Below, in pieces: positions 195 to 22,782 of a stretch of 64,000 nt of DNA. The position numbers and the translations under genes are program-made. Under the pieces are notes generated by a model. The model was not told where the DNA came from. It saw only the letters and a list, made by a program, of their open reading frames with translations, and made no database searches. Within the stretch, counting starts at the first letter, position 1. Every line of letters begins with the position of its first letter. This DNA is from Nitrospirota bacterium (GTDB taxonomy: Bacteria; Nitrospirota; Nitrospiria; Nitrospirales; Nitrospiraceae). The stretch covers positions 32,001 through 96,000 of the forward strand of contig CAVPBK010000003.1 in NCBI GenBank assembly GCA_963701855.1, given 5' to 3'.

Positions 195-278
195 CGTCGT
201 TCCCCGTCTTTTTCGGTTTTTTCTTCAGAGTACCCCTCCGATCGTAAGCTCCCCCGTCAAGCCCGCGGAGTTTGTCCG

Positions 279-2015
279 CTACTGAATCGCCACCGGTATG
301 CGGTCATCATGATGAATACCTTGAACTGGCATCGGAAGTACTGATTGCCCTTCTACTTCCGCGTAATACAATTTCCCTTTGCACCATTGCCTAATTGGTT
401 CCAGGATTGGTATAGAATTTTGGCTGACTACAATTGCATTGATGGCCTTTATTTCCCAGCCACTTGAAGTACGTATTAATGATGCATTGACGAAATTGGT
501 TAATGCATTACGCAATGCATTAAAAGGTAACGTAACTAACTCCCTTTGACTTTGCTTTTCCGAGATATTCTTAACAGCTTCAATAAATTCCGGAATCAGT
601 GATAGCTTATTGCCATCGTTAACAAAACAGTTCATTGTCCCATATCTATTTCTTTGATGACCAAAGTAACAATGGGCCACTAACAAGCCATTCTGCTGGC
701 ATAGTAAATCAATATTCGCAGGCCTCAGTTGAAACGCTAAATGATTGAGCAGGACTGTATCAAAAACCTATATGCTCTGATCGCTCATGAGACTAGATTG
801 TCCGCTTAAATCATAAAGAACCATTGGATTTTCATGATAATACTTTAGGCGGCGATTATGCTCAGCAACAAGTTTCCATGCACCCATTCTCCACGGCTCT
901 TTTATATGATGTAAATGGTTAGGGCTTAACAAGTTCTTATATACAGAACTGCCATAGTAAGCCATCAGCGGGGCGCTCACGCGCTCTGTGTCCCACAAGA
1001 ACGACAAGAAATTTGAGAAGGCGCTGAATACTTTTCTATGCTCCCAAACATCTAAATGCCGTACCGGATTTTCCCAAACATCGGTATAGGACCAGTAGTT
1101 TTCAATTCCGGCTTTACTTAATATGTCCAACAAGCCGTCCCCTTCTTTAAAAACAGCATCTCTTGAAAATAGGTACGCTCCACACCCGTGATCAATCCAT
1201 GTTTTTGGAGAATATATGCTCATCATTTGAATTCTACGCAAACACTCCGAGAGTGAGGGAAGATTTTTCCGTGGACTTAGACCATGGTAGGCTATTTCAG
1301 AGCCGCTTTCATACATCTTGTCAATGTAGTTTTTATATTCAGGGACATCTAAACCAGGCTCCATTTTACCTGACCCATAATCACTGCTAGGGAATACCCC
1401 CTTTGTAATACGAAGACTGTTTTCAGAAAAAAGCTCGTGTTGTAGGCGAAGTTTTGGAACGGTATCAAAATCTGGGTGGTCAGTTAAACAAATAACGGAA
1501 CGCGCACCGTTCGGATATGGTTCAAGCCAAGCAGCTTCCTGAAGTGATCTGAGCCTGTTTGCCCTAATGTGGATTTGTTTCTTAATAATAGGAGGTTTTC
1601 TAATCTTAGAGTCGCCCCAGAGAATAAGCCCTGAACCCAATCTATCTTGAATTACAAACGTAGCAGTGACCTGGTTTCCTTGTTTGCACAGCCTCAAATG
1701 TGGATATTTAGGCAAATCAATTTGGCACAGCATATCCCCTTCCTGTAACCAAAGAATACAACCTACAGGAAAAGGAGGTGATGCCTTAGAAGATAAAGGA
1801 AGTATTTGCCGATCATGGCTAAGGAAGTATGCTTCTTCAGCACAGAACAAGCAGGTGACCTGAATACGATTCGTGTCTTCATTAGGCGTTGGGATACTAA
1901 GATGAAATTGTGTGGACCAGACACTCTCTTGAACTATTGAAATTAGAACTTCTTTTTTGGTTACTTTGAAGTCCGATGTGCTCTCGGAGTAGGCTTTTAC
2001 CGTAACGATTGCCAT
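279..2015 (-). pseudogene. Inverted copy of the 578-aa AT-rich gene, interrupted by a TGG>TAG nonsense change at 768-770
   Basis: ORFs 768..2015 and 279..686 are in the same frame; ATA-TAG-GTT here versus ATA-TGG-GTT in the intact copy. Confidence 0.85.
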
Positions 2016-2092
2016 GCCAAAATTTCTCCTTGCACATTACACATATTCATAAGTGGAACCTTGCGATGGTCTGTAGCGGTGGCCTCGTAAGT

Positions 2093-2133
2093 CCCCGTCA
2101 AGGAGACATTTTGAAAGTGTCTCCTTGACGGGG
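2093..2133. repeat. Local hairpin CCCCGTCAAGGAGACA-n9-TGTCTCCTTGACGGGG (mirror copy at 2520-2560)
   Basis: Perfect 16-bp stem read from the sequence. Confidence 0.9.
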
Positions 2134-2639
2134 GGAGCTTGCAAAGGGAGGATGTCAGGGTAACAATGTTCCTCAACACACAGTCAAGCAATACCCCGTT
2201 GGGGGGGCCGCCACTCCAGCCTCACCTATTCTGTCACCCCTTCCCTGCTTCCCAGGCCAATAGGGCAAAGAACACATTGCGTGCTCTATTAAAACAAGAT
2301 ATTCTCACCAAATTCTCGATACGTACGTGTATGTATCGAGAATTTGGTGAGAATATCTTGTTTTAAGAGAGCACGCAATGTGTTCTTTGCCCTATTGGCC
2401 TGGGAAGCAGGGAAGGGGTGACAGAATAGGTGAGGCTGGAGTGGCGGCCCCCCAACGGGGCATTGCTTGACTGTGTGTTGAGGAAAAGTGTTACCCTGAC
2501 ATCCTCCCTTTGCAAGCTCCCCCGTCAAGGAGACACTTTCAAAATGTCTCCTTGACGGGGGAACTTACCAGGCCACCCCTACAGACCATCGCAGGGTTCC
2601 ACTTATGAATAAGTGTAATGTGCAAGGAGAAATTTTGGC

Positions 2640-4376
2640 ATGGCAATCGTTACAGTAAAAGCCTACTCCGAGAACACATCAGACTTCAAAATAACCAGAA
2701 ATGAAATCCTGATTTCCATAGTTCAAGAGAATGTTTGGTCCACACAATTTGATCTTCGTATCCCAACGCCTAATGAAGACACGAATCGTATTCAGGTCAC
2801 CTGCTTGTTTTGTGCTGAAGAAGCATACTTCCTTAGCCATGATCGCCAAATACTTCCTTTATCTTCTAAGGCATCACCTCCCTTTCCTGTAGGTTGTATT
2901 CTTTGGTTACAAGAAGGGGATATGCTGTGCCAAATTGATTTGCCTAAATATCCATATTTGAGGCTGTGCAAACAAGGAAACCAGGTCACTGCTACGTTTG
3001 TAATTCAAGATAGATTGGGTTCAGGGCTTATTCTCTGGGGCGACTCTAAGATTAGAAAACCTCCTATTATTAAGAAACAAATCCACATTAGGGCAAACAG
3101 ACTCAGATCACTTCAGGAAGCTGCTTGGCTTGAACCATATCCGAACGGTGCGCGTTCTGTTATTTGTTTAACTGACCACCCAGATTTTGATACCGTTCCA
3201 AAACTTCGCCTACAACACGAGCTTTTTTCTGAAAACAGTTTTCGTATTACAAAGGGGGTATTCCCTAGCAGTGATTATGGGTCAGGTAAAATGGAGCCTG
3301 GTTTAGATGTCCCTGAATATAAAAACTACATTGACAAGATGTATGAAAGCGGCTCTGAAATAGCCTACCATGGTCTAAGTCCACGGAAAAATCTTCCCTC
3401 ACTCTCGGAGTGTTTGCGTAGAATTCAAATGATGAGCATGTATTCTCCAAAAACATGGATTGATCACGGGTGTGGAGCGTACCTATTTTCAAGAGATGCT
3501 GTTTTTAAAGAAGGGGACGGCTTGTTGGACATATTAAGTAAAGCCGGAATTGAAAACTACTGGTCCTATACCGATGTTTGGGAAAATCCGGTACGGCATT
3601 TAGATGTTTGGGAGCATAGAAAAGTATTCAGCGCCTTCTCAAATTTCTTGTCGTTCTTGTGGGACACAGAGCGCGTGAGCGCCCCGCTGATGGCTTACTA
3701 TGGCAGTTCTGTATATAAGAACTTGTTAAGCCCTAACCATTTACATCATATAAAAGAGCCGTGGAGAATGGGTGCATGGAAACTTGTTGCTGAGCATAAT
3801 CGCCGCCTAAAGTATTATCATGAAAATCCAATGGTTCTTTATGATTTAAGCGGACAATCTAGTCTCATGAGCGATCAGAGCATATGGGTTTTTGATACAG
3901 TGCTGCTCAATCATTTAGCGTTTCAACTGAGGCCTGCGAATATTGATTTACTATGCCAGCAGAATGGCTTGTTAGTGGCCCATTGTTACTTTGGTCATCA
4001 AAGAAATAGATATGGGACAATGAACTGTTTTGTTAACGATGGCAATCAGCTATCACTGATTCCGGAATTTATTGAAGCTGTTAAGAATATCTCGGAAAAG
4101 CAAAGTCAAAGGGAGTTAGTTACGTTACCTTTTAATGCATTGCGTAATGCATTAACCAATTTCGTCAATGCATCATTAATACGTACTTCAAGTGGCTGGG
4201 AAATAAAGGCCATCAATGCAATTGTAGTCAGCCAAAATTCTATACCAATCCTGGAACCAATTAGGCAATGGTGCAAAGGGAAATTGTATTACGCGGAAGT
4301 AGAAGGGCAATCAGTACTTCCGATGCCAGTTCAAGGTATTCATCATGATGACCGCATACCGGTGGCGATTCAGTAG
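2640..4376 (+). CDS. Hypothetical protein, AT-rich; central region resembles a polysaccharide deacetylase/GH57-like barrel
   Basis: 578-aa ORF with AAGGAG RBS; motifs PYPNG...LTDHPD, EIAYHG, TWIDHG; visibly lower GC than the rest of the window. Confidence 0.75.
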   Translation: MAIVTVKAYSENTSDFKITRNEILISIVQENVWSTQFDLRIPTPNEDTNRIQVTCLFCAEEAYFLSHDRQILPLSSKASPPFPVGCILWLQEGDMLCQIDLPKYPYLRLCKQGNQVTATFVIQDRLGSGLILWGDSKIRKPPIIKKQIHIRANRLRSLQEAAWLEPYPNGARSVICLTDHPDFDTVPKLRLQHELFSENSFRITKGVFPSSDYGSGKMEPGLDVPEYKNYIDKMYESGSEIAYHGLSPRKNLPSLSECLRRIQMMSMYSPKTWIDHGCGAYLFSRDAVFKEGDGLLDILSKAGIENYWSYTDVWENPVRHLDVWEHRKVFSAFSNFLSFLWDTERVSAPLMAYYGSSVYKNLLSPNHLHHIKEPWRMGAWKLVAEHNRRLKYYHENPMVLYDLSGQSSLMSDQSIWVFDTVLLNHLAFQLRPANIDLLCQQNGLLVAHCYFGHQRNRYGTMNCFVNDGNQLSLIPEFIEAVKNISEKQSQRELVTLPFNALRNALTNFVNASLIRTSSGWEIKAINAIVVSQNSIPILEPIRQWCKGKLYYAEVEGQSVLPMPVQGIHHDDRIPVAIQ

Positions 4377-4460
4377 CGGACAAACTCCGCGGGCTTGACG
4401 GGGGAGCTTACGATCGGAGGGGTACTCTGAAGAAAAAACCGAAAAAGACGGGGAACGACG

Positions 4461-7193
4461 TTAGGGACTAGGATTGAGGATGACTCTGAAGATGCGGTGG
4501 TTAGATTCGCCATAGTTGCCATTTGCCACATAGATATACCCATCCTGCCCCAGCACATTCAATCCGTGCATGACCGCGATCAACGCACCATTTCCACCGG
4601 GGTAGGCGATCGTATGACTGGAGAGGGCTGTCAACTCTGCTCCACCAAGCACGATTCGATGAAGTTGGCCGAAGTTGTAATCGGCGAACAGTAAGTTGTT
4701 GTAATATTGCGCCGGATAGGCGGAATCTTCTCTGATTGTGACGATCCCGGTTGGCGCAATGGTGGGGGTGGTGGAGGTGCCGAAGGTGATGATAGGATCA
4801 ATCCACCGTGGATCATTGCAAATTCCTAGACAAAGAGGGTATCCATAATTCCCGCCGGCAATGATCCTATTAATCTGATCATCAGTGGTATCACCGTTCT
4901 CGGTCTGCCACAAGTCATTCGTATGGGGATGGAACGTGAACCCGAAGCTATTGCGATGGCCATAACTGTAGATCGCGGAGAAAGGATACAGAAGATTATT
5001 CGGAGGATTAATGAAGGGATTGTCGGACGGAATTCCTCCATTCGGATTGATCCGCAACATTTTTCCTCTAAGCGTACTCAAGCTCTGTGAATCCCTTACT
5101 TCGTTGTCCCCTACAAAAATATAAAGCATTCTGTCCTGGCCGAACTGGAGAATGCCTCCGTTGTGAGGGTTGCCGGCAGGAATGTTGCCAAGAATCACTG
5201 TGGGCGGATCGCTTGTGGCCACAGTATATCCATTCGAATCAGTTGTGGCAGTTAACCGAACCACTCGGTTCTTCGGACCGGATGCGGTGGTGTAGTACAC
5301 ATACACATAGTGGTTATCGCTGAAACCGGGATCGACTGCGATGCCGAGCAACCCCTTTTCAACCCCGGTCACAAAATCATCCTTAGTGGAGGTGAAAGTG
5401 TAAAACGGTACAGATTGCAACTTCCACGGAGGCGTGGCGGTCGGCGTGACCACCTGGATATTACCGGTAATTAGTTCAGTCACAAAGATCCGTCCGTCCG
5501 GAGCCGTGGCCATCGCGACCGGGAAATTCAAGCCGCTCGCAACTTCTAGGAGGGAAAAATTTCCGCTCGTCTCAGTCGCGATGGTAAAATTAAGAGTTTT
5601 CTGCGTTGTTGGCAACTCTATATCCGATTGATCCACCAGCACGAATTTGACCTGATGAGAACCGGATGCTAAGGCATTGAGTTGAATTGAACTGCCGGAC
5701 TTCCAATGCACGGCGTGGGTATGACCGTACTGCTGGGTATTGGGGTCCGGATAACGAACCCCGCTCGTATCGCCAATTTCGGTGATCACTGGTCCATCGT
5801 AGAATTTGTAGATGGCGCGGTCATCGTCGACGTAGAAATGCATCCGTGGCTGAGTGGCCGAGTGCGGTACTGGAGAATTCTGAATATTGAACGAGACCGG
5901 CACAGGCCCGGGCGGCAAGGGAGCCCCTTGGGCAGGACTATTGATGGTCAATGTTGGAGGAGCAGGTTGAGCCTGAATGCTGATGTTCAGGATGGGCGGG
6001 TTGGCCTCCGCGTTCTGCAGGTCAATGTGACTAGAAGTGGCAAGAACAAGTCGAATCGAATGGCAACCGCTTGGGAGGTCGGTAATCTCGAACGAACTGT
6101 TGCTCAGCCAGGTGATGTTGGTAACAGGCTGTCCGCTGTTATCAAGTACCTTTTTGGTGTCTCCGTTGAAGAAGTGGTTCGTGGTGGTTCCGCCGTCCAG
6201 ATAGATATGGAGATGAGGGGCCCCCTGACCTCCGATCGTAGAATCCTGGGCTGTAAACGACACGTCGACAGGGTCCAATGGCAATGAAGCTCCCTGTGAT
6301 GGGCTCGTGATGGTCAACGGCGGAAAGGGAAACGAGGAGGCGAGGATCGTGATCGGCACCGAGTCGGGCGTGGCCTCCTTGTTAACAAATTCGTTATCTG
6401 AGGCAGTGGCTAACCTCACAGTGACTTGATGTGTGCCAGGAGACAATCCGTTCAGTCGAAACGAAGTGGGACTTTGCCATTGAACATCGGGGGTGGGTTG
6501 TCTGTTGTCGTCTACCACCTTGTTGGATTGTCCGTTGTTGCATTGTCCGTTGAAGAAATGGCGAGTTGCTCCCCCATCCACCGTGATGTGGAGGTGCTGC
6601 TGCCCCTGTCCTCCGACGACGAAGTGCTGAACAGCGAACTCTACGATAACCGAAAACGATCCGAGATCCGGATCGGTGGGAGTCGTGACCGTGAGGGTGG
6701 CCGGCGGCGGCTCGCTTCCTAAAAGCGAAACTAAAAGATCTTCAACGCCCAAGATCACATTAAGAAGCGGGTTCTGGGGCGTCGCTCTCCCGCTACTCAT
6801 CGTGACGGCTCCCAAATCAAGAGATCCCGCCGTCTGCATAGTGAACACGTTTGTCGGTGGATTCCCACCATAGAGAGGGAACGTCTGGCCTGCGCTAAAG
6901 AAGACAATCTCGACCGGAAGCCCGACCGGAATATTTGAGAGAGCAAATGGGAACGGAGGAGGGCCGGGTAGAGGCGCGGTATCAAATTGAGAAATGAGGG
7001 CCTTCGTGTCGGCCCGTAACACCTTGATGACGGTCCCGGAGACCGTCCCGGTGACGGTTGTGGAACCAGTAGCTGGCGCAAGGGGAGTGGGGGTACTTCC
7101 TCCACTAGACCCGCCGCCGCTGCATGAACTCAGAGCAAGCAGGAGTGTGGCGCAGGTCAAGAGCTTACTGAACAAGTTGGTCAATACCTTCAT
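4461..7193 (-). CDS. Lipoprotein with three Ig-like His-containing repeats and a C-terminal PQQ-dependent glucose/sorbosone dehydrogenase (GSDH) beta-propeller
   Basis: Lipobox LALSSC; GSDH motifs EKGLLGIAVDP, HNGG, GKMLRINPNG, YSYGHRNSFG, GGNYGYP. Confidence 0.9.
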   Translation of the reverse strand: MKVLTNLFSKLLTCATLLLALSSCSGGGSSGGSTPTPLAPATGSTTVTGTVSGTVIKVLRADTKALISQFDTAPLPGPPPFPFALSNIPVGLPVEIVFFSAGQTFPLYGGNPPTNVFTMQTAGSLDLGAVTMSSGRATPQNPLLNVILGVEDLLVSLLGSEPPPATLTVTTPTDPDLGSFSVIVEFAVQHFVVGGQGQQHLHITVDGGATRHFFNGQCNNGQSNKVVDDNRQPTPDVQWQSPTSFRLNGLSPGTHQVTVRLATASDNEFVNKEATPDSVPITILASSFPFPPLTITSPSQGASLPLDPVDVSFTAQDSTIGGQGAPHLHIYLDGGTTTNHFFNGDTKKVLDNSGQPVTNITWLSNSSFEITDLPSGCHSIRLVLATSSHIDLQNAEANPPILNISIQAQPAPPTLTINSPAQGAPLPPGPVPVSFNIQNSPVPHSATQPRMHFYVDDDRAIYKFYDGPVITEIGDTSGVRYPDPNTQQYGHTHAVHWKSGSSIQLNALASGSHQVKFVLVDQSDIELPTTQKTLNFTIATETSGNFSLLEVASGLNFPVAMATAPDGRIFVTELITGNIQVVTPTATPPWKLQSVPFYTFTSTKDDFVTGVEKGLLGIAVDPGFSDNHYVYVYYTTASGPKNRVVRLTATTDSNGYTVATSDPPTVILGNIPAGNPHNGGILQFGQDRMLYIFVGDNEVRDSQSLSTLRGKMLRINPNGGIPSDNPFINPPNNLLYPFSAIYSYGHRNSFGFTFHPHTNDLWQTENGDTTDDQINRIIAGGNYGYPLCLGICNDPRWIDPIITFGTSTTPTIAPTGIVTIREDSAYPAQYYNNLLFADYNFGQLHRIVLGGAELTALSSHTIAYPGGNGALIAVMHGLNVLGQDGYIYVANGNYGESNHRIFRVILNPSP

Positions 7194-7420
7194 AGGCTAT
7201 GAGTGAGGTTCTTTCTGGTTCGCGGCGAGCCGACACTCTGAGGCCTCCGCCCCTTTCCTCATGCGATTTTGACGGCGATGATGCCCTATTGTGCTCTAGC
7301 AAAACAACCCCGCATAAGCGGGACGGATACCTCATACAGGGGGAGTGGTATCTCATAAGTGCATGGGATATCTATCATATTATTTATTCTTGGTGCATCA
7401 GAGGGGGCTGTTGGAGGGAA

Positions 7421-7613
7421 CTAGGAGCCTGTCCGACAGTGACCGTTCTACTGTGGCAAATGATCTGTGACCATCTGCGTCGTTCTCGCCAGAAAAAATC
7501 CTCAACGCATCGTATTCCAGCGAATACACTTCCTGTTTTTCCTGGCCTTGCACCGCTCATATGGCCGCACCTCCTTTTCCTCGTCACGATGGCAATGTAG
7601 GACAGGCTCCTAG
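7421..7613. mobile_element. MITE-like element with terminal inverted repeats and CTAG at both ends
   Basis: CTAGGAGCCTGTCCGACAGTG ... CAATGTAGGACAGGCTCCTAG; no transposase inside. Confidence 0.75.
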
Positions 7614-8176
7614 GGCAGTTTCAAGTGCCGCATGCAACTGATGGTCTCCGCCGATAGCTGTGTCTGCCCTGCGTCGTATTCCGGGCAGCCTCGCGGCCAC
7701 AATGCTGAGGGCTCGTCCCGATACCGCGGCTATCGTTCAGAACGCATCGCCGTGGGCCAGCTCCAGGCTCAGGGTCTTGCGTGCTTCGACGTTCAAGTGC
7801 CTGTCGTATTTTTTGGCATGGCAACACCAGAGCTTACTAAGCCCTGCAGTATTGCGCGTGGAGTTAGAGCTTAAGCCTCCTAAGCCTCGTACACTCCCTC
7901 TAAAGAGGGGCTGGTCGATGGAACCGATGAAGGGTACTCTAGTGACATGTGATCCTGGAAAGGCCCGGGATGTGCTCTCCGAACCGAACCTTCTCGTATT
8001 ATTATTAAGGAGCGTCAACCATATTCTCGAATCCTTAGTCAACACTTTTGCTGCTCCTCCGGTGGCGCCAGGGAGGAATGTGCGAAAACCTTTCGTGAAT
8101 GTGTCTGGTTGTATGAGAATTCCTGGTTCGTCCGATCGTACATAGCTCTCATTAAGAGTATTGGACTGGCATACGC

Positions 8177-8572
8177 ATGAGTGACAGAGTTGCACAAGCA
8201 GTCGAACGTTGGACCGAGGAGGACAGACCCATGTCGGACCCACTGCAGGTAGCTCCACCCCCGATTGCCTCCGAGCCTGTCGTCGACATCACGATGCTGG
8301 ATCGGACCATCCTATGGCCCAGCCCTGATGTGCAGGGCACAAGCATGGAGGGCGAGACGGTGCTGTTGGATCTCAGTACCGGGCGGTACTACACCCTGAA
8401 CCGGTTGGGGAGCGTCATATGGGACCACTGTACCGGCCACAACACCGTCAGTGACATTCATGCGGTCCTGTGCGACCGCTTTGAGGTCTCTCCTGATCGG
8501 GCCCTGGACGATCTCATTGCCCTGATCAACCAATTGGTCAAGGAGGGGCTACTTCAACAGGAAAGGAGGTGA
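8177..8572 (+). CDS. PqqD-family RiPP recognition element (lasso B1-like); start may be 8231
   Basis: ETVLLDLSTGRYYTLNRLGSVIW...LCDRFEV...DLIALINQLVKEGLL is the typical PqqD/RRE pattern. Confidence 0.92.
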   Translation: MSDRVAQAVERWTEEDRPMSDPLQVAPPPIASEPVVDITMLDRTILWPSPDVQGTSMEGETVLLDLSTGRYYTLNRLGSVIWDHCTGHNTVSDIHAVLCDRFEVSPDRALDDLIALINQLVKEGLLQQERR

Positions 8573-8578
8573 GAAAGA

Positions 8579-8722
8579 GTGAATGAAAAGAAAGAGGTGT
8601 ATGTCCAGCCAGTGCTCGTAACGCATGAGTTGCTGCGGGACATCACTGCGAAGGCTTCTGGCGGTCATCATGGGAACTTCTCGTTTGGCCGTTTGTTTGG
8701 TTTTTTCCATGGCCATCGCTAG
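8579..8722 (+). CDS. RiPP precursor peptide with lasso-type leader, 47 aa: MNEKKEVYVQPVLVTHELLRDITA-KASGGHHGNFSFGRLFGFFHGHR
   Basis: GTG start 8 nt after AGGAGGT; YxxPxL leader motif and LRDIT motif; directly follows the RRE gene; too short for the supplied ORF track. Confidence 0.88.
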   Translation: MNEKKEVYVQPVLVTHELLRDITAKASGGHHGNFSFGRLFGFFHGHR

Positions 8723-8735
8723 ATAAGTCAGCATG

Positions 8736-8771
8736 GGCTGGTCGATTCATAAGAATCGGCCAGCCGTTTTT
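8736..8771 (+). terminator. Hairpin plus T-tract after the precursor gene (leaky terminator or stabilising stem)
   Basis: GGCTGGTCGATTC-ATAA-GAATCGGCCAGCC followed by GTTTTT. Confidence 0.75.
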
Positions 8772-8819
8772 CTCACGAGACGTGACGGCGTAGGTGACAA
8801 TCATCAGTGGGGGAACAGT

Positions 8820-9857
8820 ATGACGATGACCGTGGTCGAAAAGCCTATGGCCGAGTCTCTATTTTCCCTCTACGGCACGGCGGTGAGATATGCCACGGCG
8901 TCGCCCTTGTTGGCCGCACCGGTGAATGAGTTTCTGAGGCATTTTCGGCGGGACTCCCTTGAGGAGTCAGCCTCTTTCACCTTGTGCTTCCAGGCTGTGC
9001 AGGAACGAGCGGACATTCCGCTGACGATATCTTCATCGGCGCGTCAATTATCTTCCGGAACGGGTGCAGCGGTCGGGGATCGGCGGGAGACCGGGTTGCC
9101 CTACGAGGTGATTCAAGATGGTGGGCGGTTGATTGCGGACTTTTTCGATGCCGGAGTCCTGGTGATGGATGGCGAGCAGGGCAAGGCTGACGGCTATCTG
9201 ATCAAGCCGGAGACCATGCACGCGAGCTTGATCGAATATTTCTTTCACCTCGCCTTGATCGAACTCTTACGACGCCGTGGGCTCTATACGATTCATGCGA
9301 CTGCGCTGGAGAAACATGGCCGTGGAGTCTTGATTCCAGGGAATAGCGGCCGCGGCAAGACGACGTCCTTTATCTCGCTACTCCGCTCGGGCTATCGATA
9401 TCTCTCGGATGATCTTCCGTTGATTCGAGATGCCGGGAGGCATGTGGAGGTGCTCCCCTTTCCCACCAAGATTAACGTCACCGAAGCGACGATCGCCTTT
9501 TTCCCGGAACTCCTGGATGCGCCTGATCACGTGCTTCATCCCGGTTCGCCCAAGCGGTCTTTTCATGCCGAGGATCTGTATCCGACCTCGGTGGGCGACC
9601 GCTGTCAGCCGGCCATCATGCTGTTCCCCCATGTCGTCGATGCCCCTCACAGTCACCTTGAGCTCCTCCCCAAGAGCCGGGCCCTGGAAGTCCTCCTCCC
9701 ACAGGCATTGCTGGTCTATGATCCAGAGGTGGCTAGACGAGAATTTCAAGTCTTAGCGAGCCTGGTGCAGCAGGTGGACTGTTACCGCTTGCATTTTGGC
9801 CACGATATCCTCGACTTGCCGAAGTTGATCACGCCGCTGCTAGAGCAACGAAGATGA
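8820..9857 (+). CDS. HPr-kinase-like peptide kinase (lasso-cluster type)
   Basis: HATAL...GVLIPGNSGRGKTT...GYRYLSDD (His, Walker A, SDD); ATG at 8820 preferred because 8733 overlaps the hairpin. Confidence 0.85.
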   Translation: MTMTVVEKPMAESLFSLYGTAVRYATASPLLAAPVNEFLRHFRRDSLEESASFTLCFQAVQERADIPLTISSSARQLSSGTGAAVGDRRETGLPYEVIQDGGRLIADFFDAGVLVMDGEQGKADGYLIKPETMHASLIEYFFHLALIELLRRRGLYTIHATALEKHGRGVLIPGNSGRGKTTSFISLLRSGYRYLSDDLPLIRDAGRHVEVLPFPTKINVTEATIAFFPELLDAPDHVLHPGSPKRSFHAEDLYPTSVGDRCQPAIMLFPHVVDAPHSHLELLPKSRALEVLLPQALLVYDPEVARREFQVLASLVQQVDCYRLHFGHDILDLPKLITPLLEQRR

Positions 9858-11077
9858 TAGCGACCAGGCAGTTCTCATTGCGACCGGAATCGGAGCTCTT
9901 GGTCTGGTGTGCCCGTACGGTCGTGACCGATGAGCTCAAGGTCCGTATCCAGCAGAGAGTGCAAGAGCCGCTTGACTGGGAATATGTCCTCAACCTGGCT
10001 CAATATCATGGTGTGGGCCCCCTGTTGTATCGGAATCTGTCCACACTTTGTTCCGATCTCGTGCCTGCCGAATCGTTGACTCAGTTACGCCAGAGGACAC
10101 AAGCCGGTGCCTTGCTCAACCGGTTGCTCGTCCAGGAACTCGTCGTCTTATGCGACGCGTTTGTCGCGCAGGGAGTGCCGGTCATGCCCATTAAAGGGGC
10201 GACCCTGGCGTCCTCAGTCTATGGCGATCTGACGCTTCGCGACTTTAGCGACATGGACCTGCTCATTCCCAAAGGCTCCATTGCAGAAGCGCACGCCATC
10301 TTGTTGGCGCGGGGCTATGAGAGGAAAGACCCTTCTTCTGATCCTGGTGAGAGGGACCATGAGGATGGGCCTTACCATGTGTTTATCAAGAAGCGCACGC
10401 TCTTTCGTGTCGATCTCCAGTGGGTGATGGCAGGTGAGCACTTTGCGTTTCAGTTGGATCGTCCCGAGTTCTGGCAGCGCCGAACGGCTGTTCCGCTTGC
10501 GAACAAGACGGTACAAGGACTGACCCCGGAAGATCTATTGATCGTCCTGTGTGTCCATGGGTCGAAGCATGCATGGGACTCGCTCAAATGGGTATGCGAT
10601 GTCGCCGAGCTGCTTCGTGCACACAACCAACTGGACTGGGATCGGATCTCCTCGAGCGCATCGAGGTGGCGCTGCCGACGCCTGCTGTCTATGGGGTTGT
10701 CGCTCGCACATCTGGTGTTGGATGCCCCACTACCCAAGACGGTTCGCGCGCGGCTCTCCGCCGACTCAGATGTGCAGATGCTGTCCCACCGTATGCCATT
10801 CACTCTCCTGGCAGATCGTCGTGCCGGCGTGAATGAGGCACAGGCAGTTGCGCTCTATTTCACGTTGAAAGATTCGTGGTGGGAGCGTTGGCGGTTTGGC
10901 CTGATGCTGTGTCGTGACCAGAGTCCTATGGTCACAACCCCTCCAGCCTGGTTTCGCTGGCGCATCTCCCTTCCGCGTCTTGCTCGGCTCGTTCTCCCCC
11001 TTCACCGGACCATGAGGAGTCTGTTTCCCTCCACGATTCGGGGCGCTATCAATCGTTGGGTCGAGCACGGTGGTTAG
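9854..11077 (+). CDS. Nucleotidyltransferase family protein (NTP_transf_5-like)
   Basis: PIKGATLASSVYGDLTLRDFSDMDLLI motif; CVHGSKHAW...LKWVCD; ATGA overlap with the kinase. Confidence 0.88.
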   Translation: MIATRQFSLRPESELLVWCARTVVTDELKVRIQQRVQEPLDWEYVLNLAQYHGVGPLLYRNLSTLCSDLVPAESLTQLRQRTQAGALLNRLLVQELVVLCDAFVAQGVPVMPIKGATLASSVYGDLTLRDFSDMDLLIPKGSIAEAHAILLARGYERKDPSSDPGERDHEDGPYHVFIKKRTLFRVDLQWVMAGEHFAFQLDRPEFWQRRTAVPLANKTVQGLTPEDLLIVLCVHGSKHAWDSLKWVCDVAELLRAHNQLDWDRISSSASRWRCRRLLSMGLSLAHLVLDAPLPKTVRARLSADSDVQMLSHRMPFTLLADRRAGVNEAQAVALYFTLKDSWWERWRFGLMLCRDQSPMVTTPPAWFRWRISLPRLARLVLPLHRTMRSLFPSTIRGAINRWVEHGG

Positions 11078-11353
11078 TCATCTTCTGGTTTGAACCTTCT
11101 GGGAAGCCCATCTGTCGAGTCCCACACAGAAAATGGTTCGGATCTGCTGCGTCACTCGCTATGGTCTGCATTGTCTTTAATTGCTCTGCCGAAGAAATTG
11201 GAAATACATCACGGCCGACAGCCATGCCTCGTGGGTCGCGACGGGAGGTTGGGCGCCTCCCATGGCGCACCAGGATTATCAGAGCGCGTGGTCTTGGATT
11301 TGGAAACGGCGGATGCTGGAATTCTCATTGAGGCTTGCTACACTGAACGCACT

Positions 11354-11824
11354 ATGATCCGATTCGTAAAAAAGTATTGGACCCTGCTGCGCGCAGGCCT
11401 GGTAGTGTCGTGGATTCGTCTCTTGTTGCGGGTCAAGAGTTTGCCACTGGTGCTGGACCGATTAAATCCTCGCTCGACAATGGAAAGACCCGACGAGGCA
11501 GTGATGGGGGATCTGGTCTGCTATGTAGATCGCTGGCTTCAACTGTTTCCCTATAACAAAAAGGGGAATTGCTTCCCACGGTCGCTGGCTCTCTATTGGT
11601 TCGCCAGGCGATTGGGGTATCCGGTTCTCTTTCATTGTGGTGTAAGAAAAGAAGCCTCGAATCTCGATGGCCATGCGTGGCTCACATTGGATGGCCAGCC
11701 TTTTCACGAGACGGGCCAGCATTGGCAACGGTTCACCGTTACCTTTTCGCATCCTCAGGATCCGACAGTTGGGACGCAGGCCTCTGCCCTCCGGCGTCAG
11801 AACAACAGGACGACGATGTCCTGA
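11354..11824 (+). CDS. Lasso peptide B2-type leader protease (transglutaminase-like)
   Basis: NCFPRSLAL...GVRK...GHAWL Cys/His motifs; ATG 11354 chosen over TTG 11090. Confidence 0.9.
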   Translation: MIRFVKKYWTLLRAGLVVSWIRLLLRVKSLPLVLDRLNPRSTMERPDEAVMGDLVCYVDRWLQLFPYNKKGNCFPRSLALYWFARRLGYPVLFHCGVRKEASNLDGHAWLTLDGQPFHETGQHWQRFTVTFSHPQDPTVGTQASALRRQNNRTTMS

Positions 11825-11839
11825 CGAGGCATTCATCAC

Positions 11840-13666
11840 GTGTTCCCGTCACCGATGAACATCATTCTGAATCGCATCCGCCCCTTCCTCCTGACGCTTC
11901 GCCACGCTCTCTTGTTTGTGTGGCAGAGCAGCCCGAGTCTGGCAATCGGCAGTATCGTGGTGCGCGTGATCCAAGGCCTTCTTCCGCTGGTGGCGCTGTA
12001 TCTGACGAAGTTGTTGATCGATGCCGTTGCCGAAGGGCTCAAGGCTCCATCAGCCGAAGGCTCCTTGAGCGGGATGGCCATGATTCTTGCTGGGTTGGCA
12101 GGTGTCGCGGTGGCCAGTGCCATGCTCACCGGCGTGGCCTCTCTGATTTCAAGGATTCATGCTCAAGTCGTCACGGATCATATGCACGCACTCCTTCAGG
12201 CAAAGTCCGTCGAGGTCGATCTTGAGTACTACGAGAATGCGCGCTATCAAGATACGCTCCATCGCGCACAAGAAGAAGCGCCTTATCGTCCGACGGCGAT
12301 TCTCAACGCCTTGCTCCAATTTGGCCAGGATGCCATTTCACTGTTTGCGATGGCAGCCATACTCTGGTGGTTGCATTGGGGGGTGATCCCGATCTTGATG
12401 CTGACGGCCATCCCGTACTTTTTCGTCCGTCTGCAGCAATCCAATCGACTGTTTGCCTGGGAGCGCGAGCGGACGCCGCTTGAGCGGAAAGCCTGGTACG
12501 TCAATATGCTGCTGACCCAAGCGATTGCAGCGAAAGAAATCCGGCTGTTCGACCTCGGCCCTCGGTTGCGGCAATGGTTCCAAGACGCGCGATCAGTGCT
12601 GCGTCGAGAACGGATCGCGTTAGAGCGCCGATGGGCGCTCGCGGGTTTTGCCGCGCAGATCATCGGCGTGGCCGGTGTGTTCGGGGTCTACAGTTTTGTG
12701 GCGTTCCGAACGTTTCAGGGGCTGCTCACCGTGGGCGACCTCGTCATGTTTTTCCAGGCGGTGCAGCGGGCCTCCGGATTCCTGGAGAGTTTGGGACAGA
12801 GTGTGTCCAGCCTCTATGAGAGCAATTTGTTCCTAACCACGTTGGATGAGTTTCTGGGTATTCAGTCTCGTTTGCCGAAGTCGGCACATCCGAAGTTGTT
12901 TCCCCAACCGATCGCGCAGGGGATTACATTCGATCATGTGTCCTTCCAATACCCGCATGAAGAACGTGTGGCGATCCAGGAGTTCACCTTTACGATCAGA
13001 CCCGGCGAACATGTCGCGTTTGTCGGAGCCAATGGGGCGGGGAAGACGACGCTGGTGAAGCTCCTATGCCGTCTGTACGATCCGTCGGGGGGGCGCATCA
13101 CGGTCGATGGTGAAGATCTTCGGAACTATCCCCTTGCCGATGTCCGTGGCGCCGTCAGCGGAATTTTTCAGGACTTTGTGAAGTTCCAGTTTTCGGCCAA
13201 GGACAACATCTCGTTGGGCCTGAGATCCCCCGACATCGACCTTTCCGCCGTCACGCAGGCGGCCAAACAGGCTGGGATCCATGAGGCCATCGAGCGTTTG
13301 CCGAAGGGGTACGAGTCATTGCTCGGCAAGCTGTTCGACGGCGGGCATGAACTGAGCATCGGGGAATGGCAAAAAGTGGCGCTCGCCAGGGCCATCCTTC
13401 GCGATTCTCAGATCCTGATTCTCGACGAGCCTACCAGCGCGATGGATGCCAAGGCCGAAGCGGAATTGTTCGAGCGGTTTCACGAACTCACTCAAGGGCG
13501 TATGGCGATTTTGATCAGTCATCGACTGGCTACTGTCAAAATGGCCGACTGTATTTTTGTCCTCGATCACGGCCAAATTGTGGAACGGGGAACCCATGAT
13601 GAGTTGATGCGACGGCAGGGGCTCTACGCCACGCTTTTCCTCACCCAAGCCCAGCATTATCAGTAG
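11840..13666 (+). CDS. ABC exporter, fused permease/ATPase
   Basis: TM helices, Walker A GANGAGKTT, signature LSIGEWQK, ILDEPT, ISHR. Confidence 0.95.
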   Translation: MFPSPMNIILNRIRPFLLTLRHALLFVWQSSPSLAIGSIVVRVIQGLLPLVALYLTKLLIDAVAEGLKAPSAEGSLSGMAMILAGLAGVAVASAMLTGVASLISRIHAQVVTDHMHALLQAKSVEVDLEYYENARYQDTLHRAQEEAPYRPTAILNALLQFGQDAISLFAMAAILWWLHWGVIPILMLTAIPYFFVRLQQSNRLFAWERERTPLERKAWYVNMLLTQAIAAKEIRLFDLGPRLRQWFQDARSVLRRERIALERRWALAGFAAQIIGVAGVFGVYSFVAFRTFQGLLTVGDLVMFFQAVQRASGFLESLGQSVSSLYESNLFLTTLDEFLGIQSRLPKSAHPKLFPQPIAQGITFDHVSFQYPHEERVAIQEFTFTIRPGEHVAFVGANGAGKTTLVKLLCRLYDPSGGRITVDGEDLRNYPLADVRGAVSGIFQDFVKFQFSAKDNISLGLRSPDIDLSAVTQAAKQAGIHEAIERLPKGYESLLGKLFDGGHELSIGEWQKVALARAILRDSQILILDEPTSAMDAKAEAELFERFHELTQGRMAILISHRLATVKMADCIFVLDHGQIVERGTHDELMRRQGLYATLFLTQAQHYQ

Positions 13667-13876
13667 TCGAGGTCTTGTGAATAGCTGGGCGCATTCACAA
13701 ACCATGTGTAACATTTATGGGAGAAAATGCTGCATGGGAAAAATCTACACACAGTTGAGTTTTCAAGAACCGACGATCATCCATAGGCAAATGGAGGTAT
13801 GCCTCGAATTCACTCAACTCCGTTGACGGAAACGCGACATTCTGCCATTCTAATCGAAACTTAACGGAGAGGCTTT

Positions 13877-15178
13877 ATGGCTCAAAAGAAAGAGACCGGA
13901 CGAAAGGTTGCGCTTGTTGGACTTGGTTATGTGGGGCTTCCTATCGCCGTTGCCTTCGGCAAGCGGGGAAAGGTCATCGGGTTCGATATCAACAAAGCAA
14001 AGATTGCAGAACTGCAGAGGGGCGTTGACCGAACGGGGGAAGTGTCGGCGGCCGACCTCAAAGTCGCTGATGTACAGTATACTTCGGAGCCTACCGACCT
14101 CAAGGCCGCCGACTTTATCATTGTGGCTGTTCCAACTCCGATCAATGAAGCGCTCCAGCCGGATCTCAAGGCGCTACGAATTGTCTCGGAATTGATCGGT
14201 AAAAACATGTCCCCTGGTACGATCGTTGTCTATGAGTCTACGGTGTACCCTGGAGTGACAGAGGATGTTTGTCTCCCTATTCTGGAAAAGACTTCCGGCC
14301 TCAAATCAGGCATTGACTTCAAGGTTGGATATTCACCGGAGCGCATCAATCCAGGGGACAAGGAGCATACTCTCGAGAAGATCGTCAAAGTCGTTTCGGC
14401 TCAAGATGCAGAGTCGCTTGAAGTCGTCGCGAATACCTATTCACTCGTCGTGAAGGCCGGGGTCCATCGGGCTTCAAGCATTAAGGTTGCGGAAGCAGCC
14501 AAGGTGATTGAGAACACGCAGCGCGATCTGAACATTGCATTGATGAACGAGCTGGCTCTCATTTTCCATCGTCTCGGAATCGATACCAAGTCGGTCTTAG
14601 ACGCTGCCGGGACGAAGTGGAACTTTCTGAAGTTTTTCCCAGGATTAGTCGGCGGACATTGTATTGGTGTGGACCCATATTATCTGACCGCTAAGGCTGA
14701 ATCGGTCGGCTATCACCCGCAAGTGATTCTGGCTGGTCGGCGCATCAATAACGGGATGGGAAAGTTCGTTGCAGAGCAAACGATAAAGCTGCTCGGTCAA
14801 CTTCCCCGGCCAGCCAACGAACTCAAGGTGGCAGTCTTAGGACTCACGTTTAAGGAAAATGTGCCGGATCTGCGCAACAGCAAAGTGCTCGATATTATCC
14901 AGGAGTTGCGTGAGTATGGGGTTCAAGTGTTGGTGCATGATCCGATCGCAGAACCGGAAGAGGCGGTCGCTGAATACGGAATTCATCTGCAGCAGTGGAA
15001 CGATCTGAAGAACGTCGATGGGATGGTTATTGCGGTGGCCCACCGCTCGTATGCGGAGATGGGCCTGCAGGAATTGCTCAAACCTCTCCGCAGTCAGCGG
15101 GAGGGCGTGGTTATTGATGTGAAATGTCTGCTTGATCAGGCGAAACTGCCCAAGACGCTCAAGTACTGGCGTTTATAA
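13877..15178 (+). CDS. Nucleotide-sugar dehydrogenase (UDP-GlcNAc/GalNAc 6-dehydrogenase, WbpO/TviB-like)
   Basis: GLGYVGLP, YESTVYPG, SPERINPGD, GLVGGHCIGVDPYYL, GLTFKENVPDLRNS. Confidence 0.95.
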   Translation: MAQKKETGRKVALVGLGYVGLPIAVAFGKRGKVIGFDINKAKIAELQRGVDRTGEVSAADLKVADVQYTSEPTDLKAADFIIVAVPTPINEALQPDLKALRIVSELIGKNMSPGTIVVYESTVYPGVTEDVCLPILEKTSGLKSGIDFKVGYSPERINPGDKEHTLEKIVKVVSAQDAESLEVVANTYSLVVKAGVHRASSIKVAEAAKVIENTQRDLNIALMNELALIFHRLGIDTKSVLDAAGTKWNFLKFFPGLVGGHCIGVDPYYLTAKAESVGYHPQVILAGRRINNGMGKFVAEQTIKLLGQLPRPANELKVAVLGLTFKENVPDLRNSKVLDIIQELREYGVQVLVHDPIAEPEEAVAEYGIHLQQWNDLKNVDGMVIAVAHRSYAEMGLQELLKPLRSQREGVVIDVKCLLDQAKLPKTLKYWRL

Positions 15179-15446
15179 GAGGCAGCAAGCCGCTGTGTTC
15201 TTCATTCTGCACCAGCACCTTTCCACGTAGTCTAATACGTATGGAGTGGCGGGAAGCCGGCATGCTCACACCGGGAACTTCCCTGTAGTACGTAGCAGAC
15301 AGATCACCCATCTTTCACTGTCAGCAGAGTTTTTGATTCTCATTGCCCCACTCTAAAGAGGCTGCTATAGATTGCTTGTGGCACGGAAATTCCAGGTAGT
15401 TTCCCTGGTTTCCTTTTTTGGCGTTGGCCTTCTTATTGTGTGACCA

Positions 15447-17804
15447 ATGAATAGTCCGGGCAATAGCATCGTAAGACATACCGCAGCGGGGGCGTGCTGT
15501 GCCATTGTGGCAATGGCATTTCTCGCCGGCTGCGCGTATTTCAATTCACCTGACATCAAGCGTGGGGATCAACATCTCGCAGCGGGTAATTGGGAGGAGG
15601 CGAGTCTCGCCTATAAGAACGCACTGAAGGATGATCCCTTCAGCCCAACATTACAGAGCAAATACACCATGGCTCGAGAACGAGCTGCGGCGTCGTATGA
15701 GGAGCGAGGACGGGCGTATCTCAAAGAACGTCAGCCGGACCTCGCAGCGGAACAGTTTAAGCGGGCACTCACCATCGAACCGTCCAGTCTCGATCATCAA
15801 TCGGGGTTGCTTGAAGCGCTTCGCTTGACTGATGCGCGCGGCCGGAATCGAGAGGCAGCCCGCCTCGCCCAGCTCGGTCGGATCGACGAGGCCATGGAAG
15901 CCTATGCCAGAGCGGCTGAGCTGGATCCTTCATTCAAAGAACCCCTTGAGAGTATCTCCAAACTCACTGAGGAGCAGCAGGCGTTCAACCGTGACGATCG
16001 GCGGAAGCAGCCGGTGACACTTAAGTTCCGTAATGCCGGACTCAAAGAAGTCTTGGAAGGGATTGGAAAGGCCGGAGGGATCAACCTCATATTCGACAAG
16101 GACGTCAGAAATGACCCCGTGACCATCAGCGTTCAGGACACGCCATTCCAAGAAGCCTTCAATCTCATTCTCAACAGCAATAGCCTGTTCGCCCAAACCG
16201 TATCTCCGGACGTCATGATCGTCAGCCCTAATACCAAGCAGAAGCAGGAGCAATATCAAGATCTGATGATTCGGACGTTCTACTTGTCCAATGCCAAAGC
16301 GAAGGACATGCTGGTATTGCTGAAGAGCATGCTCGATTCAAAGCGGATGCATGCCAATGAACAACTGAACACGATTATCATCCGGGACCAACCGGAAAAA
16401 CTGGAGATGGCTGAAAAGATCATCTTGGCCAATGACCGCCTGGACTCCGAAGTTCTTTTTGATGTTGAGGTTCTCGAAGTCGATCGCACGACCAACCAGA
16501 CCTATGGTCTGACCTATCCTAAGCAAATCGCAGCCGCCATGGTACCTCCGGGGTTTACGGCACCAATCAGCGGAGATTTCTCACCGACGTTCACGCTTCG
16601 TCAGCTCACCAGCCTCGGTCAGGACAGTTATCTCTTTAAACTTCCAACCAACATCCAGCTGGATTTCTTTAAAACGATCACCGATGCCAAGACCCTTGCC
16701 AACCCGAAAGTTCGCGTGGTGAACAACAAGAAAGCGGAGATTAACGTCGGGGACAAGCAGCCGATCCTGCTTTCCACAACGAATGTCTTGCCAGGTCAAG
16801 CGGCAACAGGGGCAGTTCCGACGACCTCGACGGTAACCTCGATCGAATTCCGCGACACCGGAGTCAAATTAACCGTTGAGCCTTCCATCCATCTGGGGAA
16901 TGAACTGTCTCTGAAGATGAAGATTGAAGTCATTAGTCTTGGCGATCGAGTTGTGCTCCAAGCCAGTCCCCTCATTTCCCAGTTTAAGTTCGGCAATCGG
17001 TCGGCGGAAACCCAGCTCAATGTTAGAGATGGTGAAACCATTGTGTTGGGAGGGCTGATCCAGGAAGAGGATCGCAAAACCCGCACCACCATCCCCTGGA
17101 TCGGTGATCTTCCTTTTATTGGCAATCTATTAAGTTCCTTTATAACCAGCAGGGTCACTACTGAGGTGATCCTGACGATCACGCCACACATCATTCCAGA
17201 TAGGACTCCTCCCGGGCTCAGTAAGCAGGTGTTCTGGTCCGGGACGGATTCAACCTATGCCACGAGCCCGCTGTTTACGCCACAGGGGAAGAAGGCTTCC
17301 TTGATGGGAAGTGGACCCGTTTCAGGGTTCTCATTGTTGGGCGAAACGGCAAAAGGGGGACTGGCAGGGAAGCCAGCTGCAGCGTCACTCACTCCCTTGA
17401 ATTCGGTAGGCGCGGTCGCCTCGATCAGGCCAAACGAGTCGGTGATCCAAATGGGAAAAGAATTTAAGCTTGCCATCAATGACGAACGTCTTCGTCCCAC
17501 GGCGGAAGGCGTATTTCAACTTCAGTATGATCCACAGGTGCTGGAACTCAGAACACTCCTGAATGGTGAGGTTATCCAAGACGGCACAGGCGATCAGACG
17601 TCTCGCAGTCCAGAGACGCAAGCGGGGACGGTTGCTTTTAAAGTCGCACCATCAGCAAGACAGGCAGGCGGGCGGACCGTCACGGCCACCTTCTATGCCA
17701 AGGCGTCCGGTGTGTCTCCTGTGCGTGTGGCGTTGGTGGATTCCGCCGCGGGATCATCCACGGCACTGTCCCAAGAAGGAAAAGGTATCGTGAGGGTCCG
17801 GTGA
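15447..17804 (+). CDS. gspD: Secretin (GspD/PilQ family) lipoprotein with N-terminal TPRs and a C-terminal cohesin-like domain
   Basis: Lipobox LAGC; AKTLANPKVRV, DTGVKLTVEP, GETIVLGGLI, IPWIGDLPFIGNL, LTITPHII. Confidence 0.9.
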   Translation: MNSPGNSIVRHTAAGACCAIVAMAFLAGCAYFNSPDIKRGDQHLAAGNWEEASLAYKNALKDDPFSPTLQSKYTMARERAAASYEERGRAYLKERQPDLAAEQFKRALTIEPSSLDHQSGLLEALRLTDARGRNREAARLAQLGRIDEAMEAYARAAELDPSFKEPLESISKLTEEQQAFNRDDRRKQPVTLKFRNAGLKEVLEGIGKAGGINLIFDKDVRNDPVTISVQDTPFQEAFNLILNSNSLFAQTVSPDVMIVSPNTKQKQEQYQDLMIRTFYLSNAKAKDMLVLLKSMLDSKRMHANEQLNTIIIRDQPEKLEMAEKIILANDRLDSEVLFDVEVLEVDRTTNQTYGLTYPKQIAAAMVPPGFTAPISGDFSPTFTLRQLTSLGQDSYLFKLPTNIQLDFFKTITDAKTLANPKVRVVNNKKAEINVGDKQPILLSTTNVLPGQAATGAVPTTSTVTSIEFRDTGVKLTVEPSIHLGNELSLKMKIEVISLGDRVVLQASPLISQFKFGNRSAETQLNVRDGETIVLGGLIQEEDRKTRTTIPWIGDLPFIGNLLSSFITSRVTTEVILTITPHIIPDRTPPGLSKQVFWSGTDSTYATSPLFTPQGKKASLMGSGPVSGFSLLGETAKGGLAGKPAAASLTPLNSVGAVASIRPNESVIQMGKEFKLAINDERLRPTAEGVFQLQYDPQVLELRTLLNGEVIQDGTGDQTSRSPETQAGTVAFKVAPSARQAGGRTVTATFYAKASGVSPVRVALVDSAAGSSTALSQEGKGIVRVR

Positions 17805-19558: not shown

Positions 19559-19595
19559 GATTCCTGTTATCCGTCTGAAATTCCGTGCACGTCTG

Positions 19596-19774: not shown

Positions 19775-19776
19775 TC

Positions 19777-20988: not shown

Positions 20989-21051
20989 CGATGGATGCTG
21001 TGATCATGTGGTTCGGCTTGCGTTCATGTGTTGAAGAATGAGTAGAAATCT

Positions 21052-22779: not shown

Positions 22780-22782
22780 GCG

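Follow-up and report, generated by a model that had tools for sequence, protein, structure and literature searches.

A cyclase-less, B2-dependent operon of Nitrospiraceae that probably directs a linear peptide phosphorylated at Ser3 of its core

The precursor peptide gene considered here lies on contig C3 of a Nitrospirota assembly (4.3 Mb, 97% complete), in a stretch of 64,000 nucleotides hereafter called the window. It occupies positions 8579..8722 of the + strand, from a GTG start to a TAG stop, and encodes 47 residues (VNEKKEVYVQPVLVTHELLRDITAKASGGHHGNFSFGRLFGFFHGHR), the leader corresponding to residues 1-24 and the predicted core to residues 25-47. A ribosome-binding site, AGGAGG (8564..8569, + strand), is located 9 nt 5' of the GTG and overlaps the end of the upstream RRE gene, whose TGA is found at 8570-8572. 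The landmarks of the leader are Tyr8, Pro11, Leu13, Thr23 and Ala24, while Ser27 represents Ser3 of the predicted core. The 23 residues following Thr23-Ala24 comprise six Gly, five Phe, four His, two Ser, two Arg and one each of Lys, Ala, Asn and Leu, with Lys in first and Arg in last position and neither Asp nor Glu. The initial annotation of this DNA had reported a 47-residue ORF with a YxxPxL leader, an LRDIT-A stretch, a strong AGGAGG site and a hairpin downstream, as well as a core starting with Lys, devoid of Asp and Glu, containing 4 His, 5 Phe and 2 Ser, and ending in Arg; each of these observations was recovered on the sequence and by residue count. In addition, an identical 47-residue protein is recorded, without a name, in a collection of 5.8 billion proteins (P0002).

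In the window, the operon follows the order RRE (B1), precursor (A), HprK-like kinase (K), PF14907 enzyme (N), B2 and MsbA-like exporter (D), all on the + strand. The RRE (8177..8572) is a discrete protein of the PqqD fold (Pfam PqqD, 5.3e-19) scoring 56.8 bits against the NCBIfam model lasso_PqqD_Bac, under the cut-off of 80, and an alternative start of its gene is the ATG at 8231, preceded by GAGGAGG. The kinase gene (8820..9857), for which a longer ORF from 8733 would overlap the hairpin, encodes an HprK-like P-loop peptide kinase matching Hpr_kinase_C (Pfam, 6.3e-06; 26.3 bits for a cut-off of 33.3) and HprK_rel_A (NCBIfam, 6.1e-16, likewise under cut-off), whose predicted structure (pLDDT 87) resembles PEP carboxykinase (4.7e-10) and HPrK/P (1.1e-5). 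Residues H150, G165, K171, T172, D188 and D189 of this kinase (H..G..GKT..DD) are invariant in 39 aligned sequences. The N gene (9854..11077) encodes a nucleotidyltransferase-fold enzyme (Pfam NTP_transf_5, 4.8e-63) with a conserved G..DxD signature; its sequence found no meaningful match among PDB sequences, and its model (pLDDT 85) is closest to ANT(2'')-Ia (5e-4) and FKRP (6.9e-4), and also to MenT-type nucleotidyltransferases, the likeness being confined to the catalytic core. It is followed by a lasso-type B2 cysteine leader peptidase (11090..11824; Pfam Transglut_core3, 5.8e-18), which exceeds the cut-off of NCBIfam lasso_biosyn_B2 (47.3 bits for a cut-off of 33), contains conserved GNCFPRSL and DGHAWL motifs, and whose conserved part starts near the ATG at 11354. 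B2 proteases require Thr at position -2, and a cut after Ala24 would place Thr23 at -2 and Ser27 at core position 3. From their conserved motifs, K, N and B2 look active. Finally, the exporter (11840..13666), matching only Pfam ABC_membrane and ABC_tran and lacking a peptidase domain, has MsbA_lipidA as its top NCBIfam match (278.5 bits, under cut-off) and is the last conserved cluster gene in related loci. A leader cut of the double-glycine type was also considered, and rejected on account of this absence of a peptidase domain.

Between the precursor and kinase genes, a stem-loop followed by a T-run (8736..8772, + strand) is composed of a 13-bp stem and a 4-nt loop at 8736-8765 and then GTTTTTCTC. 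The region 8715-8790 folds at -31 kcal/mol (z -4.21), none of 200 shuffles folding as well, and a 48-nt stretch at -18 kcal/mol or better occurs in 169 of 182 distinct downstream regions of the family versus 23 of 182 shuffles. Besides, a paralogue on contig C4 preserves the stem through one compensatory pair. The hairpin is likely an attenuator or a transcript stabiliser. RNA contigs spanning 8278-8798, 8591-8807, 8504-8758 and 8505-8689 overlie the precursor gene in four metatranscriptome runs from three studies; these runs were picked for holding this stretch, so that the placement of their contigs over the precursor carries no weight, and they indicate presence in RNA libraries only, DNA carry-over being possible and levels not being measurable. 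The kinase, N, B2 and ABC genes are mostly without cover in the four runs, and such contigs cannot rank expression. Three of the four contig ends were counted at 8798-8818 and one falls at 8758, within the 3' arm of the hairpin, which is at most a weak hint of a transcript 3' end.

A search of the 5.8-billion-protein collection returned 41 relatives of the precursor, of 32-56 residues (E 5e-25 to 4e-3), while a profile of the precursor had no hit among PDB sequences. In their alignment, the leader columns K5, Y8, P11, V14, H16, E17, L18, L19, R20, I22 and T23 are invariant and S27 is conserved in at least 90%, free variation setting in after about residue 29. The comparison of leaders with cores that the initial annotation had proposed thus opposes a near-invariant leader (YxxPxL...HELLRDIT-A) to hypervariable cores. 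When 100 related genomes were searched in six frames, 18 of the 60 that belong to the same genus had matches at E<=1e-3, and none of the 40 from other genera did. With 41 relatives, eleven invariant leader columns and such a distribution, the precursor is far beyond chance, and the ORF is a genuine gene. A chance or decayed frame without product, to which a paralogue on contig C12 broken by a TAG in its leader and a few degenerate-looking family members might point, is extremely improbable given the intact frame, the strong ribosome-binding site, the hairpin, the presence of the gene in contigs from RNA libraries, and its retention at the same operon position in many genomes.

In soils, waters and treatment plants, Nitrospira play a key part as oxidisers of nitrite and as complete oxidisers of ammonia; to our knowledge, their peptide natural products have been little explored. 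Species genomes, on scanning, yielded 36 precursor loci, of which 35 are labelled Nitrospira, Nitrospiraceae, Nitrospirales or Nitrospirota and one 'uncultured bacterium'. In the same line, the kinase profile matches strongly in 26 of the 50 genomes sampled from the same family, and gives weak partial matches only, in 4 genomes, among 250 others of the phylum. A metagenome scan with the kinase alignment used highly specific patterns and returned close relatives only, and is uninformative on other phyla. Look-alikes of K and N in the ESM Atlas occur in clusters of Acidobacteriota, Actinomycetota and Chloroflexota, and are leads only.

Of the 36 genome loci, 21 keep the full order RRE-precursor(s)-kinase-N-B2-ABC, as do 20 of the 28 metagenome loci that exceed 9 kb, most of the other metagenome loci being permutations of the same genes or contig run-offs. 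Clusters commonly contain one to three precursor genes, and the RRE gene stands directly 5' of the precursor in related loci. The initial annotation had made its reading depend on conservation beside orthologous RRE genes, and an RRE or kinase gene does adjoin the precursor in 35 of the 36 genome loci, a lone precursor being found in one. The genes flanking the cluster in the window were not found in related loci, several of which lie 3' of purine-biosynthesis genes; since flanks differ between genomes, the conserved unit extends from RRE to ABC, in varied contexts. The upstream ORFs at 7199-7600 and 7660-8145, which match no family and were not found in related loci, are treated on this sequence comparison as lying outside the cluster.

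The cores are best compared through the 153 distinct ones drawn from the family loci, numbered from the residue that follows Thr-x. Ser occupies position 3 in 134 of them and Tyr in 15 (149 of 153 together); among the remaining four, the Tyr is shifted one place later in two, while the two others look degenerate and have neither residue. A previous count that included database proteins had Ser, Thr or Tyr at position 3 in 114 of 117 cores and Gly at position 4 in 86 of 117. Judged from these alignments, Ser or Tyr at position 3 is the sole conserved core feature across the family. Ser11 and the His residues of the window core are not conserved outside its sub-family, and other sub-families display two Cys, an NNGFGNG..DGVPG motif, or Gly/Trp/Asn repeats. 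The His/Phe/Gly richness is therefore the trait of one sub-family among very different cores rather than a defining feature of the system, and a metal-binding or membrane-active role for the window core, like the cationic amphipathic or metal-binding product supposed in the initial annotation, is a guess.

This conservation bears on the site of modification, for which the initial annotation had suggested an internal Ser or a His while leaving Ser3 and Ser11 unseparated. The Ser part of that suggestion stands, with Ser27 (core Ser3) as the likely one, being the only conserved core position and the equivalent of the site proved in the precursors BsfA and LppA introduced below; a His finds no support. 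The same annotation had stated that kinases of this sort act on a C-terminal Ser, which holds for the paeninodin type (PMC8498205) but is out of date for lasso-cluster kinases in general, the kinases BsfK and LppK being described as acting on Ser3. That the kinase would modify another residue of the window core, namely Ser11, a His or the C-terminus, is improbable to a marked degree: apart from the Ser or His named in the initial annotation, it could appeal to paeninodin, ThcoK and PsmK, which target a C-terminal Ser (PMC8498205, PMC6993621), yet the window core ends in Arg, only 4 of the 153 cores have a C-terminal Ser, and neither Ser11 nor the His residues are conserved beyond the sub-family. 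The conserved x-x-Ser-Gly could, for its part, be a determinant for the protease or the RRE instead of a modification site.

With its YxxPxL leader, Thr at -2, discrete RRE and a B2 scoring over cut-off, the cluster has several features of a lasso system, while the cyclase is absent from the cluster and the ring residues from the core. A canonical lasso core has Gly, Ala, Ser or Cys at position 1 and Asp or Glu at positions 7-9. In the window, none of the 28 large ORFs scanned from 279 to 31910 matches Asn_synthase (PF00733), and a search of the whole assembly found none on contig C3, the matches being one full-length gene on contig C4, with neither an RRE nor a B2 next to it, and two short stretches on contigs C1 and C5. 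Homologues of the RRE and B2 occur in this genome only at the loci described here, and K, N and B2 as a single set plus its mirror copy. In five other cluster-bearing genomes no PF00733 match lies near the cluster, and in two of these five the matches are short only (profile positions about 15-83 of 354), no full-length homologue being found; in a complete chromosome, the cluster is near 0.96 Mb and PF00733 matches appear from 1.50 Mb onward. Likewise, none of 81 unassigned flanking ORFs in seven long loci matches Asn_synthase at E<=1e-5.

These data weigh against a lasso precursor cyclised after all by an unrecognised or distant cyclase, perhaps with unusual ring chemistry. The leader, B1 and B2 of lasso type speak for such a peptide, as do the 40 of 153 family cores that combine Gly, Ala, Ser or Cys at position 1 with Asp or Glu at 7-9, and the one full-length asparagine-synthase homologue of the genome. 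Nevertheless, that homologue stands on C4 away from any RRE or B2, PF00733 is absent in and near the cluster in the genomes examined, two of five carriers having no full-length homologue at all, and a core with Lys first and no Asp or Glu, as in the window, offers no canonical ring, 30 of the 153 cores being without any acidic residue; we thus hold this explanation to be very unlikely. Since it has neither cyclase nor ring acceptor, the window system does not belong to the lasso family. The view of the initial annotation that the ORF encodes a RiPP precursor with a lasso-type leader and a core unable to form a lasso ring is accordingly upheld, the stronger reason being a pathway without cyclase.

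Three published systems are relevant for comparison. The first is bsf, the lasso cluster of Bradymonas sediminis (bsfA, K, B1, B2, N, C, D; Duan et al., Front Microbiol 2023, PMC10368454), the second the linear polyphosphorylated peptides, or LPPs, of Bacillota (lppA-K-B-S-D-N; Popov et al., Nat Commun 2026, PMC13381572), and the third the paeninodin and pseudomycoidin type of lasso peptides, which are phosphorylated or phosphoglycosylated (PMC8498205, PMC6993621).

Regarding the RRE, a profile search against the PDB ranks PbaB1 (9x90, 43.5 bits) and TbiB1 (42.7) above TfuB1 (30.4) and LppB (9x8z, 27.8), the chain identities of 9x90 and 9x8z being taken from the LPP paper (PMC13381572). Aligned pairwise with LppB, the RRE has the Asn of its YYTLN and the second Asp of its LDDL opposite an Asn and an Asp of LppB, which would be Asn33 and Asp70 if, as we infer, the crystallised chain carries an 18-residue tag; in the LPP report, these two residues of LppB hold the Pro and the Tyr of the leader (PMC13381572). 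Co-folding of RRE and precursor, from alignments of 49 and 41 rows respectively, reached a score of 0.47 versus 0.13 for the best of three controls, with at least 91% agreement in contacts between runs and a partner pLDDT of at least 52. On calibration, 116 of 157 solved complexes attained the mark, as did 2 of 215 mismatches; passes at <=0.60 are graded weak, as is this one, and as the score may reflect likeness to solved RRE-leader complexes, it is left out of the evidence.

The bsf cluster and the window cluster have K, B1, B2, N and D in common. BsfK phosphorylates Ser3 of the BsfA core in a reaction accelerated by the RRE, BsfB2 removes the leader, and residues H148, G163, K169, S170, D186 and D187 of BsfK matter by mutagenesis (PMC10368454). 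The invariant residues of the window kinase lie at the same spacing as these six, being matched by spacing and not by alignment with BsfK. Moreover, a cut after Ala24 would give Tyr-17, Pro-14, Leu-12 and Ser+3, which is the register of BsfA (PMC10368454). The two systems differ in that bsf includes a cyclase, bsfC, and a precursor meant for a lasso, whereas the Nitrospira cluster is without cyclase and the window core without Asp or Glu, and in that position -2 is Ile in BsfA but Thr in the window peptide.

As to the LPPs, LppA receives one to four phosphates on core Ser3, Ser3Ala abolishes the modification, and neither Ser3Thr nor Ser3Tyr is accepted (PMC13381572). Ser3Tyr is not accepted by BsfK either (PMC10368454), so that known enzymes leave the Tyr3 relatives unexplained. 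LPP and Nitrospira clusters have in common a conserved YxxP...H...T leader, hypervariable C-termini and one to three precursors per cluster. The LPP precursor motif is YxxPxVLxHQxIxFETxxS, with the leader cut after Thr(-1) (PMC13381572). The window peptide agrees with this motif in Y, P, a hydrophobic pair, H and T, all equally spaced. The spacing from Tyr to Thr is 15 residues in both; from Thr to Ser it is four in the window peptide but three in the LPP motif, and Ser3 fits only if the cut follows Thr-Ala. One residue fewer before the Ser in LPP fits with LPP's own peptidase cutting right after Thr and, as read from the window sequence and the published motif, the Ser is at core position 3 under the peptidase rule of each system. 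The surface-polymer and secretion genes next to the window cluster are a further likeness, LPP clusters in Bacilli being often located by polysaccharide loci (PMC13381572): directly 3' of the cluster, the stretch 13877-31172 includes a TviB-like UDP-GlcNAc 6-dehydrogenase (13877-15178), a secretin with TPR repeats, pilin-like proteins, T2SS F and E proteins, PilN- and PilO-like proteins and a sugar epimerase (26629-27633).

A difference concerns the leader peptidase, which is the SpI-like (SipW-type) LppS, the search marker of the LPP family, in Bacillota and a lasso B2 cysteine protease in Nitrospira. No signal-peptidase family was detected in 12 window ORFs scanned from 768 to 15178, nor in 81 flanking ORFs of seven related loci. 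Lacking an SpI peptidase, the window system is not an LPP as defined. LPPs are stated to be restricted to Bacillota, and the string 'Nitrospir' is absent from six supplementary files of the report (PMC13381572). The Nitrospira RRE profile being nearer to lasso B1 proteins (PbaB1 and TbiB1) than to LppB by the PDB scores, a separate origin of the Nitrospira system by loss of the cyclase appears plausible on sequence grounds. In a search of the literature outside subscription journals, neither this Nitrospira family nor a cyclase-less system of the B2 type turned up in any paper.

The paeninodin and pseudomycoidin type, like the window cluster, comprises an HprK-like kinase, which there acts before leader removal, together with B1, B2 and D (PMC8498205, PMC6993621). 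It differs by a cyclase and a C-terminal Ser site, which the window peptide lacks, and its leaders are mostly WxxP (PMC13381572). Within this type, PsmN, an enzyme of the PF14907 type, is needed for the addition of one or two hexoses on the phosphate (PMC8498205, PMC6993621). The LPP supplement assigns lppN and pbaN to PF14907 and pbaB2 to PF13471 (PMC13381572), the families also found for N and B2 in the window, and LppN is described as without effect in a heterologous host (PMC13381572).

K and N might instead act elsewhere, for example on a surface glycan, the peptide being an unmodified cationic one that is only cut and exported, with x-x-Ser-Gly serving protease recognition. Such a scheme would suit the sugar-nucleotide and secretion genes beside the window cluster, among them the TviB-like dehydrogenase (13877-15178) and the epimerase (26629-27633), but it is hard to reconcile with K and N lying between precursor and B2 in a tight operon with variable flanks, and with the homologous BsfK and LppK being proved Ser3 peptide kinases. 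Furthermore, Tyr3 occurs only beside a divergent second kinase type, which adjoins all 13 Tyr3 cores having a kinase within 2.5 kb, and 13 Ser3 cores as well. An unmodified product is for these reasons considered improbable, though less so than the alternatives weighed above.

By analogy with the systems described, we consider it fairly probable that the operon is related to LPP and bsf, depends on B2, works without a cyclase and makes a linear Ser3-phosphorylated peptide. The RRE would bind the precursor leader at Tyr-x-x-Pro-x-Leu, and the HprK-like kinase, aided by the RRE, would phosphorylate Ser27 (core Ser3) once or more, after which the PF14907 enzyme may elaborate the phosphate. The B2 cysteine protease would, with the RRE, cleave after Thr23-Ala24, and the MsbA-like exporter would release a linear 23-residue peptide, K-A-pS-GGHHGNFSFGRLFGFFHGHR. 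The hairpin 3' of the precursor gene probably raises the precursor message relative to those of the enzyme genes.

If this reading is true, Ser3-phosphorylated linear peptides extend beyond Bacillota, including to Gram-negatives, and a lasso B2 protease can serve a non-lasso pathway. The family provides more than 150 natural core variants for one enzyme set and, with its second kinase type, a change from Ser to Tyr that occurs in nature; its operon is small and suited to probing the reaction of the PF14907 enzyme. In genome mining, B1/B2 pairs alone would be no marker of lasso peptides. A more speculative extension, to which we give a low probability, is that the linear phosphopeptides of Nitrospiraceae form a lineage separated from a bsf-like lasso pathway by cyclase loss, in parallel to the LPPs of Bacillota, and that the Ser3-phosphate is only an intermediate. 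The PF14907 enzyme, with a predicted core like those of nucleotidyltransferases and of the CDP-ribitol phosphotransferase FKRP, might then build a phosphodiester conjugate with a sugar or surface polysaccharide, so that the hypervariable tails, here His-rich and possibly metal-binding, would end up on the biofilm matrix or be set free into it, and the sister sub-cluster would extend such chemistry to Tyr3 with its own kinase.

This sister sub-cluster is present 2-4 kb past the exporter in many Nitrospira loci (L034 15366-19211, L045 15057-19479, L048 15524-19599) and is absent from the present genome. It comprises an unknown ORF of 330-415 residues, a RimK-like ATP-grasp gene, an RRE, a precursor, the divergent kinase (54-58% identity) and another precursor, sometimes with a fatty-acid-hydroxylase-like gene, and Lys, Thr, Ser, Asp and Glu abound in its cores. 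It is possibly a graspetide-like hybrid with Tyr3 modification.

Within the present genome, contig C4 (269919-270563, - strand; locus L025 9919-10536) encodes a second RRE (155 residues, PqqD 1.1e-18) and a precursor with the core KASGGHHGNAFGRLFGHSNGHR and the same hairpin. No kinase, N, B2 or exporter gene is found alongside, and this pair would have to use the enzymes of C3 in trans. A decayed precursor copy lies on contig C12 (43578-43721, + strand; locus L026 about 10578-10721), the TAG being within the leader (HE*LRD). A precursor identical to that of the window, at C3:27937-28077 (- strand), is not an independent copy, as it sits in the mirror arm of a foldback covering positions 1-68395 of C3, in which C3:1-32654 matches C3:36001-68395 in reverse complement with 92-99.8% identity. 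In the window, this foldback covers 1-4654 with its centre at 2327-2328, 1-2096 mirroring 2559-4654 at 98% and the innermost arms, 2195-2326 and 2329-2460, lying 2 nt apart. Two strain variants mis-assembled into a palindrome are the probable cause, the alternative being a real inverted duplication. Finally, at the far end of the window, an ORF of 1746 residues (56307-61547, - strand) is accompanied by nested ORFs at 55544-59630 whose sizes of 117 and 141 residues recur about 1242 nt apart, which suggests the gene of a long, internally repeated protein.
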